The translations under genes and the position numbers were made by a program. Shown here piece by piece: positions 2,499 through 29,147 of a DNA stretch of 64,000 nucleotides. The notes beneath the pieces were generated by a model. It was not told the DNA's origin, searched no databases, and saw nothing but the letters and a program-made list of their open reading frames with translations. Position 1 is the first letter of the stretch. Each line of letters begins with the position of its first letter. This DNA comes from a virus (Duplodnaviria; Heunggongvirae; Uroviricota; Caudoviricetes), in IMG/VR virus record IMGVR_UViG_3300045988_155334. One strand, given 5' to 3'.

Positions 2499-3338
2499 TC
2501 ACGCATCGCTATCCAACAGCAAATCATCTGCGCGGGTGCGATCAAACGTAGGCGTTGCTTTCACAATAGTGCCGCCCGGCGTTGCAGTGATCGGGGCGTT
2601 AATCGACGTAACTTCAGTAAGCGAAGTTGTATCCGAAGTTTCAAACCAGCAGAATGCTTTTTCGGTATCAGAAATCTCATTCAAAGTGATCATGTCGGCC
2701 TGTTCATTTACAACAACCGACAAATAGAGCGTAAGCCCATCAAACACTATATGCAGTGGCAGTAGAGGCTTTACGAACTGATTAAACTTTCTGAGAATTT
2801 CTTCTGTAATTGCGGACTGATCTATCGATCCAGTAATACCCATTGTCCGGGCCAGGTCGTTTATGGGAATACTGATCATTCCTCTGGAAGTCAGAAACAT
2901 CTCGCCGAATGTGCCGCCGGTGGTTTCCAGTGTGCTTTCTGGAATCAGGACCGTGCCATAGGGATGTCGTTCAAAGTCCACCGGAGCATATATGGGATCC
3001 CATAAAACCGATATACCGTTAAATTCGCGATAAATTGTCTGGTTTATAGGGCGTTCAGTACCCTTAAAATGGATCTCATCAAACCGCTGTTGTAACAACA
3101 TCGGAACGGAAGATGAATTCGACGTTCTGATAGTAAAAAACTGGCCAAGTTCATTTGTCCTGGTCTCCAGATCCTCCTTGCTCATGGAGAAAATAGACTT
3201 CCGGTTGGTAATTCGCTCCAACCATGGGTCAACAAAGGTGTCCATCATTGACTGAACCAAATCAGCCAATGATTTATAAAGCAATGACTTTTGCTTAGCT
3301 GATGTAAGCCGGTTATTAAACCAGGAACGTTGCATCAC
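2499..3338 (-). CDS. Baseplate wedge protein, gpI-like (P1 gp16-like by position)
   Basis: 279-aa ORF following the gpJ-like gene, the typical W-J-I baseplate order of P2/Mu-type myoviruses. Confidence 0.45.
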   Translation of the reverse strand: MMQRSWFNNRLTSAKQKSLLYKSLADLVQSMMDTFVDPWLERITNRKSIFSMSKEDLETRTNELGQFFTIRTSNSSSVPMLLQQRFDEIHFKGTERPINQTIYREFNGISVLWDPIYAPVDFERHPYGTVLIPESTLETTGGTFGEMFLTSRGMISIPINDLARTMGITGSIDQSAITEEILRKFNQFVKPLLPLHIVFDGLTLYLSVVVNEQADMITLNEISDTEKAFCWFETSDTTSLTEVTSINAPITATPGGTIVKATPTFDRTRADDLLLDSDA

Positions 3339-4768
3339 TCCTCCTCATACGAAATATTGAAGGTGGAGTTTTCTGTATCCAGATAAACGAAATCGTAAAA
3401 GCCGTTGGACTCATACCACTCGACAAACTCCAGATAAAAGTCGCGGAAATAGCCCAGCGTTTCGATAAACGCCCAAACGTCTTTTTTCTTAATCAGGATG
3501 TACTTTCCGACGCGGTTCGGATCAAAGAAAGTTGAGTCGCGCCCAAATTTTTTTTCCAGTGCCGACTTCAGCTCATCGGTCACATTCTCAATGGTCAGGC
3601 TTGCCGATATCCGTCCGGTGATGGTTATCTTAAATGGTAGTTTTCTGACCTCTTTATAAGAGAATTTCTTGTTCAGTTCATTCGGTACCTTCTTAAAGGC
3701 AGCCAGGATCATTTCTTCAAGCTCTGACTGACTTTTATTCGGATGCCATCCTGAAATAAATATCTTATTGATATTCTGAACATTATAAGCACCATCTAAT
3801 TTTTCTTGCTGACCCTCGCCCCATGCCTTTACCCAGGACAGTCCCGGGATGTTACGCACCAGAAAATACGTATAGTCCCCGCCCCATACGACCTGATCAT
3901 CATAGGCAAGGTAATATTGTGCACGGTTACGTGTGATCTCCGTTGTTTCGGCATCGGTACCTGTGGTTATAGGTGTCGTTGTCTTAACTGAAATCAAATT
4001 AGCTAAATTAGCCGCAGAATCGACAGGCGTCAGGTTTTGGCCAGCAACCAGGGTTATATCGCCGTTGGTGCACCATACCTTAAGCGTAATTGTCGAGCCT
4101 TCTGGCGGTATTTGCCCAATTAGCCCATCGCCGAATCGAACTCCCAACTGCTCGGATGGTTTATAAAACTCAACGTAGACCTGGCTTTTACTACCGGCTA
4201 ACCGGAACATAGTGCTGGAAGACCACTGCGTGGTCTTACCATCGGTCGTCACGAATACTTCCAGCTTATAGCAGACAGCAGTGAGAGCCTTTGATAACAC
4301 GACTTCCAGAAATTCTTTGGCTGCCGTAACGGTATATGTCACCTCCTGGATTTCCAACTGTGCCACTTCTACCGTACCGGTGCCGTCAACCAACCTGCAT
4401 ACATCCATAGTCATGTAAGGGTACTGGTCGTCAGATATTAAAGGCGTGTTTTTGGGGATTACCGCTGGAGCATCTTCACTTGTGGCTGTGATCTCAACCA
4501 TCCCGGATGACGGTGTTGGCTTGGTACCAACGTAACTATTCGTTTCTGCCGCTGCCAAGATAGAGGAACGCCGCGTCGCGGTCGATATAAAGCCTTCAGC
4601 CAGCGCCGCATCGGCATACTGAAAGCACCTGTAGACAATCTGGGTAATAAACAATGTCAGCATCGAGACAAATTGAGAGCCGACAAACTTCGACCAGAAT
4701 GAATCTTTCTCGACAAGCTCTTCAAACTCTGCACGAATACTGTCTTTAGTCGGTGTTGTTTTACTCAT
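3335..4768 (-). CDS. Baseplate J-like protein (P1 BplA-like)
   Basis: 477-aa ORF between the gpW-like and gpI-like genes, start overlaps upstream stop. Confidence 0.5.
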   Translation of the reverse strand: MSKTTPTKDSIRAEFEELVEKDSFWSKFVGSQFVSMLTLFITQIVYRCFQYADAALAEGFISTATRRSSILAAAETNSYVGTKPTPSSGMVEITATSEDAPAVIPKNTPLISDDQYPYMTMDVCRLVDGTGTVEVAQLEIQEVTYTVTAAKEFLEVVLSKALTAVCYKLEVFVTTDGKTTQWSSSTMFRLAGSKSQVYVEFYKPSEQLGVRFGDGLIGQIPPEGSTITLKVWCTNGDITLVAGQNLTPVDSAANLANLISVKTTTPITTGTDAETTEITRNRAQYYLAYDDQVVWGGDYTYFLVRNIPGLSWVKAWGEGQQEKLDGAYNVQNINKIFISGWHPNKSQSELEEMILAAFKKVPNELNKKFSYKEVRKLPFKITITGRISASLTIENVTDELKSALEKKFGRDSTFFDPNRVGKYILIKKKDVWAFIETLGYFRDFYLEFVEWYESNGFYDFVYLDTENSTFNISYEEE

Positions 4769-24502: not shown

Positions 24503-25363
24503 TTATTCGGGGAGTTTCAGCTTTGGATTGCGAGAATGGACGATTACAAAACTTTCCCGGCCTTTCTTCTCAATTGAACAGTCGAGATAGCCGATTGTTT
24601 TAAGCTGTTCTATCGCTTTCTTAATGATACGGTTTTGCTCGCCAACAGCTGACTGCAAAGCCAGGCGCTCACGGATTCGCGCGAACGATAGCGGCAACGG
24701 ATTCTGCGGAAGGCTTTCGATAAAAGTGTAAATGGCTTGTGCAGCTTCTTTCTTCGGAAGGGCACGCAAGGCGTGGTGCTGCAACAGGACGCGATAATCA
24801 AGCTGGAACAGCTCCCACAGCTTCGAGTCGGCTTCCAGCTCGATCAGATCGAGGTCAGCATCGAAACGTCCGACCTTCAACAGACCAGTCTGGTAGCCAC
24901 CTTTAGCATCTTTACCACGCTTAAAAGCGATACCCTTGTTACGCAAGCGGCCAAGTGATTCATGAATGGTTAAACGCAGTTTCGCATCCAGACGTTTTGA
25001 GGGGAAACCGCAGGCTTTAGCGAATTCCTGAAACGATAACTGGATGGTGTTTGAGGACAAGCCGTATTTGCTGAACGCGTAGATAACACCGATCCACGTT
25101 TTGAAATCAGTATCCATATCGAGTCGAGGACCGGTGATTTTAATGTCATCGTAACCTTCTGCTTTAGCTATCTCCAGCTGGGAAAACGCTTTGGTGGCAT
25201 CAATCTCTTTACTTTCTCCTTTGCTCTTTGATGGCTTCGGCACGAATACCCCCAAGCGCATCAACGCTACAGGCTGCACAGTGTTGTTTGAATTAACTGT
25301 TAATTCTTTTGCCTTACTTTCAATGTCTGCGTAAAGAATATCGGAGATAAAAGATTGATTCAT
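24503..25363 (-). CDS. repA: RepA plasmid replication initiator
   Basis: 286 aa, flanked by iteron arrays on both sides. Confidence 0.9.
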   Translation of the reverse strand: MNQSFISDILYADIESKAKELTVNSNNTVQPVALMRLGVFVPKPSKSKGESKEIDATKAFSQLEIAKAEGYDDIKITGPRLDMDTDFKTWIGVIYAFSKYGLSSNTIQLSFQEFAKACGFPSKRLDAKLRLTIHESLGRLRNKGIAFKRGKDAKGGYQTGLLKVGRFDADLDLIELEADSKLWELFQLDYRVLLQHHALRALPKKEAAQAIYTFIESLPQNPLPLSFARIRERLALQSAVGEQNRIIKKAIEQLKTIGYLDCSIEKKGRESFVIVHSRNPKLKLPE

Positions 25364-25379
25364 ATTACTTTTTCCGAAT

Positions 25380-25645
25380 TATGTGGATAGTTTTTATAAG
25401 CGGTGATAACTACCCAGGCTTTCCCGTCAGCACACATCCTATATCCCGCCAGCACACATTAGCAACCCGTCAGCACACATTTTTATCCCTCCAGCACACA
25501 TCGTTTTCCCTCCAGCACACATCGTGATACACTTCTAAGCCAGACGTGGCGCGGCCTGCAACGATCAGGGATCTATATGGATCTAATTGGGATCTGTATG
25601 GACCTAATTATTGGATCTATCCAGTGGATAATGTGGATAAGTGAA
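25380..25645. other. oriR plasmid origin: DnaA boxes, five incC iterons (25420-25524), five GATC sites in short repeats, tandem DnaA boxes
   Basis: tgtggatag at 25382; five iterons (..CC-N-CAGCACACAT); GATC at ~25563-25615; agtggataa-tgtggataa at 25623-25640. Confidence 0.85.
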
Positions 25646-25681
25646 AAACCGGCCAACAAAGCCGGTTGGAAGGAAGCCGTA

Positions 25682-26074
25682 TTATTCTACGCTTTCGATG
25701 AGAAGGCCATGTTCATAACATTTAAGCTCATCGCCTTCGTACAGGAATTGGTATCCAATACCACCATTTTCATGGACATTAGGGAATAACTCATAACTCA
25801 CTGAAGAGCAAATCACACCAATGCAGCGATCAACGCCTTCTCGTTCTTCAGTACTGAAAAAATCCTCTTCGGTAAGAACATGAGTACATTGCTCATCAGC
25901 ATAGATCGGAAATACATGCTCGATGCAATCCGGGTGTTTTAAACCAAGCTGATCGGCAAGCTCGAAAGCATGACGGTATTGTTCAGATCCTGGCTTGCCA
26001 ACAGTGATGTGCTCAATTTTGTAGATTGAAGTCGCTTTGTTGATAGTTTGCTTTACTGTTACTTTATCAGACAT
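25682..26074 (-). CDS. Hypothetical protein (UpfA-like by position)
   Basis: 130-aa ORF adjacent to oriR. Confidence 0.4.
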   Translation of the reverse strand: MSDKVTVKQTINKATSIYKIEHITVGKPGSEQYRHAFELADQLGLKHPDCIEHVFPIYADEQCTHVLTEEDFFSTEEREGVDRCIGVICSSVSYELFPNVHENGGIGYQFLYEGDELKCYEHGLLIESVE

Positions 26075-26085
26075 AAAAATCCCTT

Positions 26086-26418
26086 TTAGTTACCGCTGAT
26101 AGCGCGGTTGTAATCATTAACGTTGCGATTCTTCCTGTTAATCCCCATCAGCATCGTTTCTGTATCGAGGATATACGCTGGCAGATCATCAAAATATTCA
26201 CTGCTAAACTCTGGCATCCTGCACATAAACGCACTTTTGGGGGCAGGGTGGTTAACCTTTGTCGGCGTCGGCGTTAAATTCGCTGATCGACTCCCGGAGC
26301 AACCGCTGAGTGTCAGCAGGAATGCGCTGGCGAACATTACCCGCCGCAACCAGTTGTTTCTGAACTTCTGCTTTTCGTTCCATTTGCCTGTCAGCATACT
26401 TGGCTTGTTCTGATTCAT
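26086..26418 (-). CDS. Lipoprotein (Mlp-like)
   Basis: Lipobox LTLSGC after a hydrophobic segment; AGGAAG ribosome-binding site before the 26418 start; alternative start at 26337. Confidence 0.5.
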   Translation of the reverse strand: MNQNKPSMLTGKWNEKQKFRNNWLRRVMFASAFLLTLSGCSGSRSANLTPTPTKVNHPAPKSAFMCRMPEFSSEYFDDLPAYILDTETMLMGINRKNRNVNDYNRAISGN

Positions 26419-26701
26419 TTTTCACTTCCTGGCTGTGAAAATGTTGCTCTGCTTTGTTCATCGTCTCAATGGTCTGGTTAAGATCCATTATGGACTTATC
26501 ACGTTCCTTAACAGCCTGATCAAGACTGCCAATTTTCTCCATGGCTTGCTTTAGCTGATGACGTTCCCATGCAAACCCAGCACCAACAAGTGCGCAAATC
26601 AGAACAAGAACACCAGTAGCAGCAAGTTTCTCCTTCAAAGACAAAGCTGTTTTTAACGTAGAAAAGAATGACATGTCTTCCTCCTGAAGAAAAATTATCA
26701 A
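26252..26701 (-). CDS. Membrane-anchored coiled-coil protein (PpfA-like)
   Basis: 149-aa ORF; one transmembrane segment (VLVLICALVGAGFAW) then coiled coil; 3' end overlaps the mlp-like ORF in another frame. Confidence 0.4.
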   Translation of the reverse strand: MIIFLQEEDMSFFSTLKTALSLKEKLAATGVLVLICALVGAGFAWERHQLKQAMEKIGSLDQAVKERDKSIMDLNQTIETMNKAEQHFHSQEVKNESEQAKYADRQMERKAEVQKQLVAAGNVRQRIPADTQRLLRESISEFNADADKG

Positions 26702-26713
26702 TGAAGTCCTTTG

Positions 26714-27559
26714 TTACTGTGCCGCTTTGTTTAATTCATCAAGAACAGAATCAGGAACCAAAGCGGCGACTGCGCTGGCTGTGCTGGCCTTATTTGCTGA
26801 TGCTTCCGCAAGCGCAGTACCGATAGCATGGTTATAAGCAGTTATGGCTACGTTGGCGCTTTCATTCGCTCGTTCATACTGCTGTTGTAACGCAGTTGTG
26901 GGCGCTGTTGTCCGGTTGAAAACAACCCCAAACTGTTCAGTTGCTACTTTCAGAGATTCAATTTGTTCTTCTGTTAGTGCTGGTGGGGGAGTGGCAGTTC
27001 CGCCGCCTGAACCAGAGTCTGACGAGCTTCCTGAGCCAGTGTTAAGGGTCTGGTTAATCTCCCCCATAGCAGCGACTAAACTTGATGTATTAAGCGCGTT
27101 AACAGCGTCCTCAAGCGATTTAGTAATATTCACATCACCAATGGCAATAGAGATCGGCAGTTCTGATACTTCTCGCTCATTAGCACGGCAGTAAACATCC
27201 CAACCAATATCGAGTTGAAGCAGCATTGACAGATCTGCATAACCAGCCAACAGGTCCGCGTGCTTAGTTGCCAGTTCTCCAATGTTCGTTAAGCCGGTTA
27301 TGGTTGTTCTGATCGTCGAAACATAGCTGGTAATAGTGTCGGGATAGACAATTGTATCCAAAATTAATCCGGTCAATTCTTCTGCAAGCTGTTTTGCCGT
27401 GTTAGCACTGTTTCGTGCCGATGTTATGGCACCAGGTGTTTTCATCCCACCGGCGGCGGCCAATTTTTTATATGCGGATAACTGGTAGTCTTTTTCCAGC
27501 ATGATATCTCCTAACTTACCTGAACTAGGCCGTCTCCTGATGCTACGGTAGAGCCGCAT
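26714..27559 (-). CDS. Hypothetical protein with Gly/Ser-rich linker (UpfB-like)
   Basis: 281-aa ORF; probable start at an internal Met; central GSGSSSDSGSGGG linker. Confidence 0.4.
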   Translation of the reverse strand: MRLYRSIRRRPSSGKLGDIMLEKDYQLSAYKKLAAAGGMKTPGAITSARNSANTAKQLAEELTGLILDTIVYPDTITSYVSTIRTTITGLTNIGELATKHADLLAGYADLSMLLQLDIGWDVYCRANEREVSELPISIAIGDVNITKSLEDAVNALNTSSLVAAMGEINQTLNTGSGSSSDSGSGGGTATPPPALTEEQIESLKVATEQFGVVFNRTTAPTTALQQQYERANESANVAITAYNHAIGTALAEASANKASTASAVAALVPDSVLDELNKAAQ

Positions 27560-27795
27560 GAAACAGGGTCACCAACGCATACGACCCCTTTACCATTGAC
27601 GGTAAACCATGCCCTGGTTGATATAGCTTGCCCACCGTGCGTACTGTTTCCATCGGTATGCTGTGCATATTGCTTACCATCAACTAACACTTCTACTCCG
27701 TTGACTTTAAGTAATGGTTCACTCTCTACAGGAGGCCTGGATGGGAATCCTCCGTGCCCCGAACAAATGCTGTCTTTTGTTGCAATACTTGCCAC
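27511..27795 (-). CDS. PAAR-like spike-tip protein (UpfC-like by position)
   Basis: 94 aa, GTG start; ICSGHGG, VNGVEV, THGG and VNGKGVVCVGDPVSCGS motifs typical of PAAR-repeat proteins. Confidence 0.45.
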   Translation of the reverse strand: MASIATKDSICSGHGGFPSRPPVESEPLLKVNGVEVLVDGKQYAQHTDGNSTHGGQAISTRAWFTVNGKGVVCVGDPVSCGSTVASGDGLVQVS

Positions 27796-27886
27796 GTTAT
27801 CACCAATGATTTGCTCTGATTTTCGTTATTTTAACTTAGGTTGTTTGTGGTCTGCATGGCGTTTACTTATTATAAAATTGCTCTAA

Positions 27887-27903
27887 TAAATATTGTTTTT
27901 TAT
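27887..27903 (+). promoter_or_regulatory. C1 operator overlapping the promoter of uhr-hrdC-dmt
   Basis: ATTGCTCTAATAAATAT, 16/17 match; -35 TTGCTC and -10-like TATGTC. Confidence 0.6.
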
Positions 27904-27964
27904 GTCGTGTTTTCGGTACCATTCAGCCATCGCCCTTCAATGGGCATTTGTTTGGAGTCGTCAG

Positions 27965-28249
27965 ATGCAGATGGAGCTAATAAGCCGCAAGGAGTTCGAT
28001 AGCCGTGTAACCAGCGGTGAACTCGACAACTTGCAGGCTATCAAGGTGAAAGAAGGCTTTTGCCTCATTGGGAATCAGAGCGGAACAAATCGCGTTTTTA
28101 TGCTTCGCCGTACGGATTTGAAGCCATTTGTCTGGAAGAACGAAATTGGTCCCAGCTCATACGCTCAAACGAGGGGGTGCCACAACCTGGCCTTTTTCTA
28201 CAAAGACGAGCTTTCTGTGGTTGATATTCAAGGGTTACAACATGTTTAA
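27965..28249 (+). CDS. Small protein upstream of hrdC (Uhr-like)
   Basis: ORF 27893-28249; likely start ATG 27965 after a GGAG ribosome-binding site; stop overlaps the hrdC start. Confidence 0.4.
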
Positions 28250-29147
28250 GCACTGGAAAAACATTACTATTTATAAACTTTCTCGTGAGGCGGATCTGAC
28301 CGACTTAGAAGATAAAAAGAAAATGATCCTTTTCACGCCATGCGGTAGTCAGGATATGGCCAAGTTCGGTTTTGTATCGCCATTTGGTGATAATTCCGAA
28401 GTTATCGCTATGCATGGAAATGGTTTTATCCTTGTTGAAGCAAAGCGCGAAACAAAAATTCTTCCCCCGCCGGTTATCCAGCGAGCTATTCAAGAAAAAA
28501 TTGAAAAACTTGAGCAAGAACAAGCGCGTAAACTGAAGAAAACAGAGAAGGACTCCCTGAAAGACGAAGTTCTGCATTCTCTTCTGCCACGGGCTTTTTC
28601 AAAGTTTTCTGTTATCCAGGCGATCTACGACGGTTCAACTAAACGTATCTATATCAATGCCAGCGCGCGGCAGGCTGAGGATATGCTCGCGCTTATGCGT
28701 AAGTCTCTGGGTTCTCTTCCTGTTGTTCCCCTGAGTGTTGAAAATCCCATTGAATTAACGCTGACCGACTGGGTACGTGATGGTAGTGCTCCACAGGGAT
28801 TTCAAATGGGGGATGCGGCAGAACTTAAGGCAGTGCTTGAGGATGGCGGTATTGCCCGAGTGAAAAAGCAGGATTTGGGAAGCGATGAAATTTCCACACA
28901 CCTGGAAGCTGGCAAGCTCGTCACTAAGTTGGCACTCGACTGGCAGAACCGCATTAAATTTACACTGGACCATAACTTCAGCCTTACCAGCGTCAAATTT
29001 GCGGATGAATTGCTTGAGCAGAACTCTGATATTGATAGTGAAGATGTTGCGCAGCGACTGGACGCAGATTTCTTCCTGTTGACCAGTGAAATTTCGTGCC
29101 TGGTTGATGCTCTGGTAAATGCCCTTGGTGGAGAGGCTAAGCAGTGA
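28242..29147 (+). CDS. hrdC: HrdC, RdgC-like recombination-associated DNA-binding protein
   Basis: ORF 28128-29147; likely start ATG 28242 (301 aa); [16 protein letters not shown] and [45 protein letters not shown] resemble RdgC. Confidence 0.75.

Follow-up and report, generated by a model that had tools for sequence, protein, structure and literature searches.

A PAAR spike-tip gene, its coupled partner and a predicted spanin pair in the upfC-upfB-ppfA-mlp-upfA cluster of a P1-type phage-plasmid

The minus strand between positions 25682 and 27795 of the window, a 64,000-nucleotide stretch of viral DNA, carries the upfC-upfB-ppfA-mlp-upfA cluster of a P1-type phage-plasmid. The window represents a P1-family phage-plasmid; in this region its DNA is 95–97% identical to that of P1 and P7, and the genes follow one another in the order found there. 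The cluster very probably joins functions for the two phage crossings of the host envelope, namely entry and exit (probability about 0.85). The genes and most of their functions have been published before, and finding the cluster re-derives annotated P1 biology while adding little to it. What is new here is the linkage of UpfA homologues to spanin genes, a conserved four-gene block, and the position of the upfB start.

Gene content and transcription signals of the cluster

The cluster contains five co-oriented open reading frames (ORFs), all of which had been located in a sequence-only reading of the same DNA. The longest forms of these minus-strand ORFs span 27511–27795, 26714–27559, 26252–26701, 26086–26418, and 25682–26074. 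The cluster is flanked by oriR/repA on one side and by the divergent uhr-hrdC-dmt operon on the other, a placement that had been proposed from the letters and agrees with the P1 reference annotation. Among the 81 P1-like loci compared, each of the five ORFs is intact in 65–74, corresponding to 97–100% of the ungapped matches that cover its full length. In these P1-like loci, pN/pS ranges from 0.06 to 0.25 across the five ORFs. All five are under purifying selection, and their intactness in P1-like loci together with the low pN/pS identifies them as real genes. A scan of positions 25300–28300 against Rfam returned no family matches.

Features of the cluster and its surroundings, in positions of the window:
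36632..37264, minus strand: gene 5, encoding the trimeric central spike capped by UpfC; a structural partner outside the cluster coordinates
27877..27893, plus strand: C1 repressor operator Odmt in the divergent intergenic region between upfC and uhr; matches 16/17 of the operator consensus and is annotated in NC_005856
27511..27795, minus strand: upfC, encoding a 94-aa PAAR-repeat spike-tip protein, GTG start; PAAR and PDB matches
26714..27502, minus strand: upfB from its probable start, encoding a 262-aa all-helical protein; Shine-Dalgarno sequence, phrog_1559 match, orthologue starts, and AlphaFold2 model
26990..27031, minus strand: Gly/Ser-rich disordered linker of UpfB, residues 158–171 (Met20 numbering), sequence GSGSSSDSGSGGGT
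26252..26674, minus strand: ppfA, i-spanin candidate, 140 aa from ATG 26674 (149 aa from TTG 26701); TMD and phrog_89 match
26086..26418, minus strand: mlp, o-spanin candidate, 110-aa outer-membrane lipoprotein precursor; lipobox, phrog_30284 and phrog_456 matches
26252..26418, minus strand: out-of-frame overlap of mlp with the 3' end of ppfA, 167 nt; mlp runs 166 nt past the ppfA stop
25682..26074, minus strand: upfA, encoding a 130-aa soluble beta-rich protein; starts 11 nt past the mlp stop
25647..25667, minus strand: terminator-like stem-loop with trailing T run, 15 nt past the upfA stop; 8-bp stem with 5 GC pairs, then TTTTCACTTAT

The stem-loop after upfA likely ends the transcription unit just before oriR. 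At the opposite end, leftward transcription of the five genes may be under the control of Odmt as well. Searches upstream of upfC identified no promoter, and late co-expression of the five genes is therefore assumed. A -22 box model of Lpa-type late promoters (AAxTGACTA, 4 nt, TAnAAT), taken from the annotated LPsit, LP23, and LP26, reached no more than an unconvincing 5/9 in the region upstream of upfC, and a consensus promoter scan found fewer sigma-70-like sites than in shuffled sequence. In the window, a leftward TATAAT is present on the minus strand at 27869–27874, beside the C1 operator; it is not conserved in reference P1, which has TGCAAT at this place. According to the P1 record, upfB contains two predicted sigma-70 promoters.

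UpfC and UpfB at the spike tip

The 94-aa product of upfC had been called PAAR-like from the letters, and profile and phmmer matches together with the conservation of metal ligands bear this out. UpfC is 98% identical to the PDB chain 9vyi_A ('UpfC') and matches phrog_281 (E 2.2e-30). In phmmer searches, it matches T4 gp5.4 (E 6.5e-8) and the T6SS PAAR protein 4jiv_D (E 2.9e-4), both with metal ligands aligned. Its score against Pfam PF05488 (26.5 bits) lies just below the cut-off of 27, and that against NCBIfam NF033420 (36 bits) lies far below the cut-off of 124. Published HHpred results likewise back UpfC as a PAAR protein, and upfC has a pN/pS of 0.06. The predicted metal ligands H14, H46, H53, and C80 align with the GH, HT, THGG, and SCG positions of gp5.4. 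In PAAR tip proteins, a tetrahedral three-His/one-Cys site links the hairpin tips, as described for the T4 gp5.4 mechanism (PMC12407873), and a site of this kind would hold UpfC together.

In the P1 cryo-EM structure, one UpfC monomer is located on the tip of the gp5 trimer (PMC12810830; also in a preprint). The gene 5 product of the window matches the corresponding PDB chain 9vzk_q 'Gp5' (E 1.6e-136) and scores 22.9 bits against PF04717. One UpfC caps the blunt end of the gp5 beta-helical spike trimer and thereby sharpens the spike, which serves in entry.

UpfC resembles T4 gp5.4 and T6SS PAAR proteins (PF05488; PDB 4KU0, 5IV5, 4JIV) in its single domain of ~95 aa, in its significant sequence similarity with conserved three-His/one-Cys ligands, and in capping a trimeric beta-helical spike as a monomer (P1 cryo-EM, PMC12810830). 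It also shares with gp5.4 (PMC12407873) that it is dispensable for plaque formation, deletion of upfC from P1 giving normal plaques in the virion LC-MS/MS study. Unlike the gene for gp5.4, upfC adjoins the plasmid origin, far from its structural partners: as had been read from the letters, the gpV-like spike gene (36632–37264) is 8.8 kb away and the wedge genes ~23 kb away, where the gpW/J/I-like genes had been placed and where the gp6/J-like wedge gene (3335–4768) lies at 22.7 kb. Moreover, upfC is followed by the coupled gene upfB, which T4 lacks, and the gp5 spike of P1 has no lysozyme domain in contrast to that of T4 (PMC12810830). UpfC also differs from many T6SS PAAR proteins in having no effector extension; the PAAR alignment spans the protein end to end (residues 4–93), without an N- or C-terminal extension domain. 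Since UpfC is all PAAR core, only a separate protein, namely UpfB, could serve as cargo.

For upfB, a 281-aa protein with a Gly/Ser linker had been proposed. The ORF for it exists at 26714–27559, but the start is most likely Met20 (ATG 27502), which yields 262 aa and would make the annotated start at 27559 probably too early by 19 codons. ATG 27502 lies 8 nt past the upfC stop and has a strong Shine-Dalgarno sequence, AGGAG, 5 nt upstream. The phrog_1559 match covers residues 20–281 of the 281-aa ORF, and UpfB database clusters measure 255–268 aa. In addition, upfB orthologues begin -4 to +9 nt from the stop of the PAAR gene in all six diverged relatives (6/6), at identities down to 25%, and upfB would be translationally coupled to upfC. 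The AlphaFold2 model of UpfB (pLDDT 89.2) contains 11 helices. The proposed linker (GSGSSSDSGSGGG) is disordered in this model, with pLDDT < 50 at residues 158–171; it joins an N-terminal seven-helix part to a C-terminal helical part, and its length differs between orthologues. According to database searches, the UpfB family is restricted to ~90-kb P1-like phage-plasmids.

The P1 cryo-EM study found three trimeric densities, the 'tripod', at the tip of the spike and assigned UpfB to them by fitting an AlphaFold3 model of the UpfB trimer into medium-resolution density (PMC12810830). UpfB, with its flexible Gly/Ser linker, is most likely attached to the tip in the form of three trimers, and it would probably go into the envelope together with the spike on sheath contraction. 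On a more speculative reading, it may be cargo that the PAAR tip carries into the envelope of the host, in the manner of T6SS effectors loaded on PAAR proteins.

A less favored but credible alternative is that UpfB is a non-structural helper and not the virion tripod: it might assist the UpfC tip as a chaperone or assembly factor, or be associated with lysis and share a transcript with the spanin genes. UpfB is mentioned nowhere in the main text of the virion LC-MS/MS study or in the table there of detected proteins, whereas the tripod would bring nine copies of this 27-kDa protein into each virion. However, gp5, gp26, and UpfC were also undetected by virion LC-MS/MS and yet are present in the structure, which bears on the non-detection of UpfB. 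The helper role is further consistent with the non-essential nature of upfB and with the use of a predicted model for the cryo-EM assignment, whereas the unassigned three-fold density at the spike tip is real and the authors report that the AlphaFold3 trimer fits it (PMC12810830). The strict coupling of upfB to the PAAR gene over deep divergence fits a physical tip partner, although it would fit a chaperone too. The tripod placement is preferred here; it is a predicted model fitted into density that puts UpfB in the virion, and its presence there is cheap to check.

PpfA and Mlp as a candidate spanin pair

The cluster had also been suggested to be a spike-tip/ejection module as a whole. This holds for upfC and, with less certainty, probably also for upfB (cryo-EM, PMC12810830; 9vyi_A), whereas PpfA and Mlp constitute a predicted spanin pair for lysis, and the five genes are not a single functional module. 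Both proteins carry the envelope signals that had been recognized in the letters, namely an N-terminal TMD in the membrane-anchored coiled-coil protein PpfA and the lipobox LSGC in the 110-aa lipoprotein Mlp.

The ppfA ATG at 26674 is preceded by AGGAGG. PpfA has a 16-residue cytoplasmic tail followed by the TMD at residues 17–35 (nt 26570–26626; Kyte-Doolittle 19-residue mean 2.35), and its periplasmic domain is helical, with 35% charged residues beyond residue 40. It matches the Rz-like spanin family phrog_89 (E 1.5e-25) and weakly TIGR03495 LysB (19 bits vs the cut-off of 92.75), and it gave no Pfam spanin matches, the lambda Rz family PF03245 included. The Mlp lipobox (nt 26299–26310) contains Cys40 with Ser at +2 (no Asp). 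Mature Mlp is composed of 71 aa with 6 Pro and a further Cys at position 27, and the protein matches phrog_30284 and phrog_456 (Rz-like spanin). The Cys at position 27 is periplasmic; PpfA has no Cys there, as is often the case in such pairs. In 507/528 two-component spanin systems, one or more Cys residues in the periplasm are available for disulfides between molecules. The overlap of the two genes follows the definition of the overlapped spanin gene architecture (PMC6139136), and an overlapped spanin pair is found after the UpfB gene in 6/6 diverged relatives.

PpfA and Mlp are thus predicted to be an overlapped two-component spanin pair that acts in lysis, and not in ejection or exclusion. 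Because they possess the full spanin anatomy and match Rz-like PHROGs, they would be synthesized by the producing cell and serve phage exit. At exit, the endolysin would clear the peptidoglycan, and the periplasm-spanning PpfA–Mlp complex would then fuse the inner and outer membranes, completing lysis. This agrees with an earlier report naming ppfA-mlp as the predicted P1 spanins, a prediction that dates from 2007 (PMC9025707). The P1 holin and endolysin genes are located in other operons, and spanin genes beside them are unreported (PMC9025707), so that P1 has no known spanin without PpfA–Mlp. In CRISPRi, ppfA and mlp both score non-essential, mlp with an EOP of 0.24; the CRISPRi paper, citing the virion LC-MS/MS study, also scores upfA, upfB, and upfC deletions as non-essential.

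In common with lambda Rz/Rz1 and P2 LysB/LysC, the pair combines a type II protein of the inner membrane, PpfA, whose periplasmic domain is charged and helical, with a lipoprotein of the outer membrane, Mlp, that is short, rich in Pro, and encoded in another frame; P2 LysB/LysC have the same overlapped architecture. The pair also resembles the lambda and P2 spanins in having a periplasmic Cys for homodimer disulfides, carried by Mlp, but differs from them in that the i-spanin PpfA lacks one. Moreover, PpfA has no detected similarity to the Rz family of lambda and weak similarity to the LysB family of P2, and ppfA-mlp lie apart from the holin and endolysin genes because the lysis genes of P1 are scattered (PMC9025707).

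An envelope-acting exclusion system, the other function suggested for the cluster, found no support: none of the five proteins matched a PADLOC-DB family at E <= 0.01, and the spanin architecture accounts for the membrane and lipoprotein signals. It is very improbable that PpfA/Mlp, perhaps with UpfA, form a prophage envelope system that excludes superinfecting phages or alters the lysogen surface like the Llp/Cor/Bor lipoproteins. The genes ppfA, mlp, and upfA do adjoin the plasmid maintenance region of the prophage, and the two sigma-70 promoters predicted inside upfB in the P1 record could drive them in lysogens. In addition, the spanin activity of PpfA/Mlp is a prediction (PMC9025707), and the cluster genes are all dispensable for plaque formation. 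However, an out-of-frame overlap combined with a type II TMD protein and a Pro-rich outer-membrane lipoprotein is a specific signature of two-component spanins, to which the matches of both proteins to Rz-like spanin PHROGs are added. The absence of PADLOC matches also argues against exclusion by PpfA/Mlp, P1 would be left without a known spanin unless ppfA-mlp counts (PMC9025707), and its known superimmunity genes, simABC, are located elsewhere in the genome.

That the five genes constitute one dedicated ejection apparatus, with virion-borne PpfA/Mlp fusing host membranes at entry, is hardly tenable: the genes are co-oriented and tightly packed, the four-gene block is kept in relatives, and the spike-tip and spanin modules both act on the envelope, but PpfA carries signals for inner-membrane insertion in the producer cell and Mlp those for lipidation and Lol sorting to the outer membrane, both proteins are absent from the virion proteome text and the cryo-EM model (PMC12810830), and UpfA homologues and spanin pairs co-occur in siphovirus-type lambdoid prophages without a contractile tail spike.

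UpfA and its linkage to spanin genes

The 130-aa protein UpfA had been grouped with the envelope-targeted proteins, but it contains neither a signal peptide nor a lipobox, and no export signal was found in its sequence. Its predicted fold is confident, and a search for known fold relatives found none. A conserved Cys cluster was considered and rejected, the Cys residues being unconserved in phiKO2-type relatives.

UpfA homologues are present in P1-like, lambdoid, and N15-like phages, positioned just after unrelated spanin families, and example loci show them beside four different lysis cassettes. In 57/69 non-P1 UpfA-homologue loci, many of which are related prophages, a spanin pair lies <=800 nt upstream on the same strand; the corresponding controls gave 0/69 and 0/61. 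A strict spanin-detection heuristic recovered 33/69 loci, and the count of 57 came from a relaxed version with homology rescue, adopted after inspection of the failures. The scan of viral contigs with the first UpfA alignment returned P1-like loci only and was redone with an alignment of the non-P1 subfamily.

In lambdoid prophages, the UpfA homologues sit directly after the spanin and before the terminase genes, like lambdoid lysis-cassette morons such as bor, which lambda presumably carries in the region after its lysis cassette. Unlike bor-type morons, the UpfA gene is co-oriented with the spanin genes at close spacing, its product has no signal peptide or lipobox and a fold without a known relative, and its position is kept beside embedded as well as overlapped spanin pairs and beside several Pfam spanin families. 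UpfA would be a small cytoplasmic protein whose gene rides at the 3' end of the spanin operons of many phages. Most likely it either assists lysis as an accessory factor or is the product of a hitch-hiking moron. The linkage could also come from a recombination hot spot instead of shared function. Of the two bolder proposals, the UpfB-cargo role set out above being the alternative, it is a speculative and rather unlikely idea that UpfA is a widespread accessory component of the spanin lysis step with a new fold. In such a role, it could time or modulate spanin or holin action via the short cytoplasmic tail of the i-spanin.

For P1 itself, the predicted spanin activity of ppfA-mlp is a point that can be checked cheaply. 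The PAAR-UpfB-spanin block adjoining partition and replication genes provides a handy marker for P1/D6-type phage-plasmids, and the position of UpfA after the spanin genes of unrelated phages points to a possible, so far unrecognized lysis-associated function.

Identity and organization of the cluster

The region from 25500 to 28000 shares 95–97.5% DNA identity over its full length with P1, P7 and other punaviruses. In the same stretch, the P1 reference record carries upfA, mlp, ppfA, upfB and upfC, every gene pointing leftward, with oriR/repA on one side and, on the other, the divergent uhr-hrdC-dmt operon under C1 control. The match in both DNA and gene order thus identifies the window as a P1-family phage-plasmid and the region as a named gene cluster. 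All five minus-strand ORFs described by the sequence-only reading were found where it placed them, and the cluster as a whole is confirmed. The distances it gave to the tail genes are also correct: the spike gene, located at 36632-37264, is P1 gene 5, encoding the trimeric central spike gp5 (PDB 9vzk_q, E 1.6e-136; PF04717, 22.9 bits), and the gp6/J-like wedge gene lies at 3335-4768. Each ORF is intact in 65–74 of the 81 P1-like loci compared (97–100% of full-length ungapped matches), and the pN/pS values among P1-like loci indicate purifying selection on all five genes.

Genes of the cluster
27511-27795, minus strand: upfC, PAAR-repeat match, pN/pS 0.06
26714-27502, minus strand: upfB with its probable start, pN/pS 0.25, the highest of the five
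26252-26674, minus strand: ppfA, i-spanin candidate, pN/pS 0.11
26086-26418, minus strand: mlp, o-spanin candidate, pN/pS 0.23
25682-26074, minus strand: upfA, pN/pS 0.16

Upstream of upfC the P1 record shows no promoter; for this cluster it lists only two predicted sigma-70 promoters, both within upfB. The P1 late-promoter (Lpa-type) signature derived from LPsit, LP23 and LP26 was not found upstream of upfC. The minus strand has a perfect TATAAT (27869-27874), separated by 2 bp from Odmt, the C1 operator at 27877-27893, and this could be a C1-controlled leftward upfC promoter; the equivalent position reads TGCAAT in reference P1 and TATGAT in JK004. At the other end, a terminator-like hairpin (25647-25667, minus strand) lies 15 nt past the upfA stop and directly precedes the DnaA-box and iteron region of oriR, where it would shield the plasmid origin from leftward transcription.

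The spike-tip gene upfC and the probable tip gene upfB

The earlier PAAR-like call for the 94-residue UpfC holds. UpfC scores 26.5 bits against Pfam PAAR_motif (PF05488; cut-off 27) and matches phrog_281 ‘PAAR motif’ (E 2e-30), T4 gp5.4 (5iv5, 4ku0; E about 1e-7) and the T6SS PAAR protein 4jiv_D (E 2.9e-4), and it shares 98% identity with PDB chain 9vyi_A, which was deposited under the name ‘UpfC’. In the alignments, its residues H14, H46, H53 and C80 fall on the conserved gp5.4 His and Cys residues that make up a tetrahedral metal site (PMC12407873). From HHpred, Gonzales et al. predicted that UpfC is the tip of the P1 spike, and they reported that upfC deletion leaves plaquing normal and that UpfC was not found by LC-MS/MS (PMC9024508). 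Two later cryo-EM studies place one UpfC monomer atop the gp5 trimer (PMC12810830; bioRxiv 10.1101/2025.07.21.665459). The best model for the role of UpfC is T4 gp5.4, which is not needed for assembly, raises fitness, and is needed on deep-rough LPS hosts (PMC12407873). The remoteness of upfC from the spike gene is no anomaly, because a tip gene may lie apart from its spike gene (PMC12407873).

The longest upfB ORF encodes 281 residues from ATG 27559 and overlaps upfC by 49 nt. This annotated start is probably wrong, the true one being Met20 at ATG 27502, which is preceded by an AGGAG Shine-Dalgarno sequence and lies 8 nt past the upfC stop. The phrog_1559 alignment begins at residue 20, the orthologues of six other phage-plasmids (D6, JK004 and four more) begin −4 to +9 nt from the stop of the PAAR gene, and database gene calls of the family span 255–268 residues. 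The UpfB family is small: it forms 81 clusters at 90% identity and has 96 representatives in a set of 1.84 billion proteins. Its named sources are either contigs of about 70–135 kb, mostly close to 90 kb, or Enterobacterales and Photobacterium plasmids, among them plasmids from Photobacterium leiognathi measuring about 92 kb. Among P1-like phages UpfB diverges faster than its neighbours, with 88–90% protein identity to P1 and P7 versus about 95–98% for UpfA and UpfC.

The spike tip anchors three trimeric ‘tripod’ densities, which have been assigned to UpfB (PMC12810830). We regard UpfB as the probable tripod protein of the virion, and grade it no higher because the assignment comes from an AlphaFold3 trimer fitted into a medium-resolution map (PMC12810830) and UpfB goes unmentioned in the main text of the LC-MS/MS study of virions (PMC9024508). 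The strict coupling of upfB to the PAAR gene over deep divergence independently supports a physical link between UpfB and the tip.

The putative spanin genes and upfA

In PpfA a cytoplasmic tail of 16 residues is followed by a single TMD (residues 17–35, Kyte-Doolittle mean 2.35) and then by a periplasmic domain in which 35% of the residues are charged. Mlp carries an LSGC lipobox with Cys40 and Ser at +2, and its mature form of 71 residues contains six prolines and one more Cys; periplasmic Cys residues occur in 507 of 528 two-component systems (Kongari et al., PMC6139136). Both proteins match Rz-like spanin PHROGs. Since mlp begins 167 nt within ppfA in a different frame and extends 166 nt beyond its stop, the predicted layout is the ‘overlapped’ two-component spanin architecture as defined by Kongari et al. 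(PMC6139136). Bednarek et al. had proposed ppfA and mlp as putative P1 spanins from predicted features, with ppfA labelled as o-spanin and mlp as i-spanin (PMC9025707). The TMD of PpfA and the lipobox of Mlp show that these labels are reversed, PpfA being the putative i-spanin (inner-membrane partner) and Mlp the putative o-spanin (outer-membrane lipoprotein). [quoted passage not shown]

UpfA showed no signal sequence or TMD and no match in Pfam, NCBIfam or PADLOC. Alignment-based search yielded a family of 125–133 residues from Enterobacterales prophages (25–50% identity). The confident AlphaFold2 model of UpfA (pLDDT 87.7) has ten strands and one helix, in a fold for which no structural relative is known. 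In Citrobacter, Klebsiella, Serratia and Pectobacterium prophages, which differ in holins, endolysins, terminases and spanin families (PF03245, or PF10828 plus PF23793), the UpfA homologue lies 37–190 nt downstream of co-oriented spanin genes. A same-strand spanin pair is found within 800 nt upstream in 57 of 69 non-P1 UpfA loci from IMG/VR (median gap 134 nt; embedded and overlapped architectures equally frequent), compared with 0/69 on the opposite strand and 0/61 for a downstream control anchor. In the window, 11 nt separate the mlp stop from the upfA start. This recurrent position makes UpfA a rider gene linked to spanins; it may either act in lysis or just occupy a favoured insertion slot. 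In the Serratia and Pectobacterium prophages (loci L013–L016, about 4444–4711), a DNA polymerase III theta-like gene (PF06440) follows the UpfA homologue; P1 also has such a gene (hot), at another place in its genome.

Proposed entry and exit functions in one conserved block

The cluster unites two functions with separate mechanisms: at entry the spike tip would attack the envelope from outside, and at exit the spanins would destroy it from inside. The interpretation in the sequence-only reading is partly right: it holds for the spike tip, and ‘envelope-targeted’ is fair as a loose description. A single ejection module is unsupported, as is an exclusion system. Essentially all of this content has been published already; the small additions made here are the corrected upfB start, the corrected spanin labels, the linkage of UpfA to spanins together with its predicted fold, and the conservation of a four-gene block. 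This block, composed of the PAAR tip, UpfB, i-spanin and overlapped o-spanin, is kept in all six diverged relatives (D6, JK004 and the four further phage-plasmids), in which UpfB identity ranges from 25% to 59%; upfA is restricted to the P1/JK004 lineage. In five of the six the block adjoins plasmid partition or replication genes, the partition systems varying in type (ParM/StbA or ParA). Its conservation indicates that the cluster is a stable unit of this phage group.
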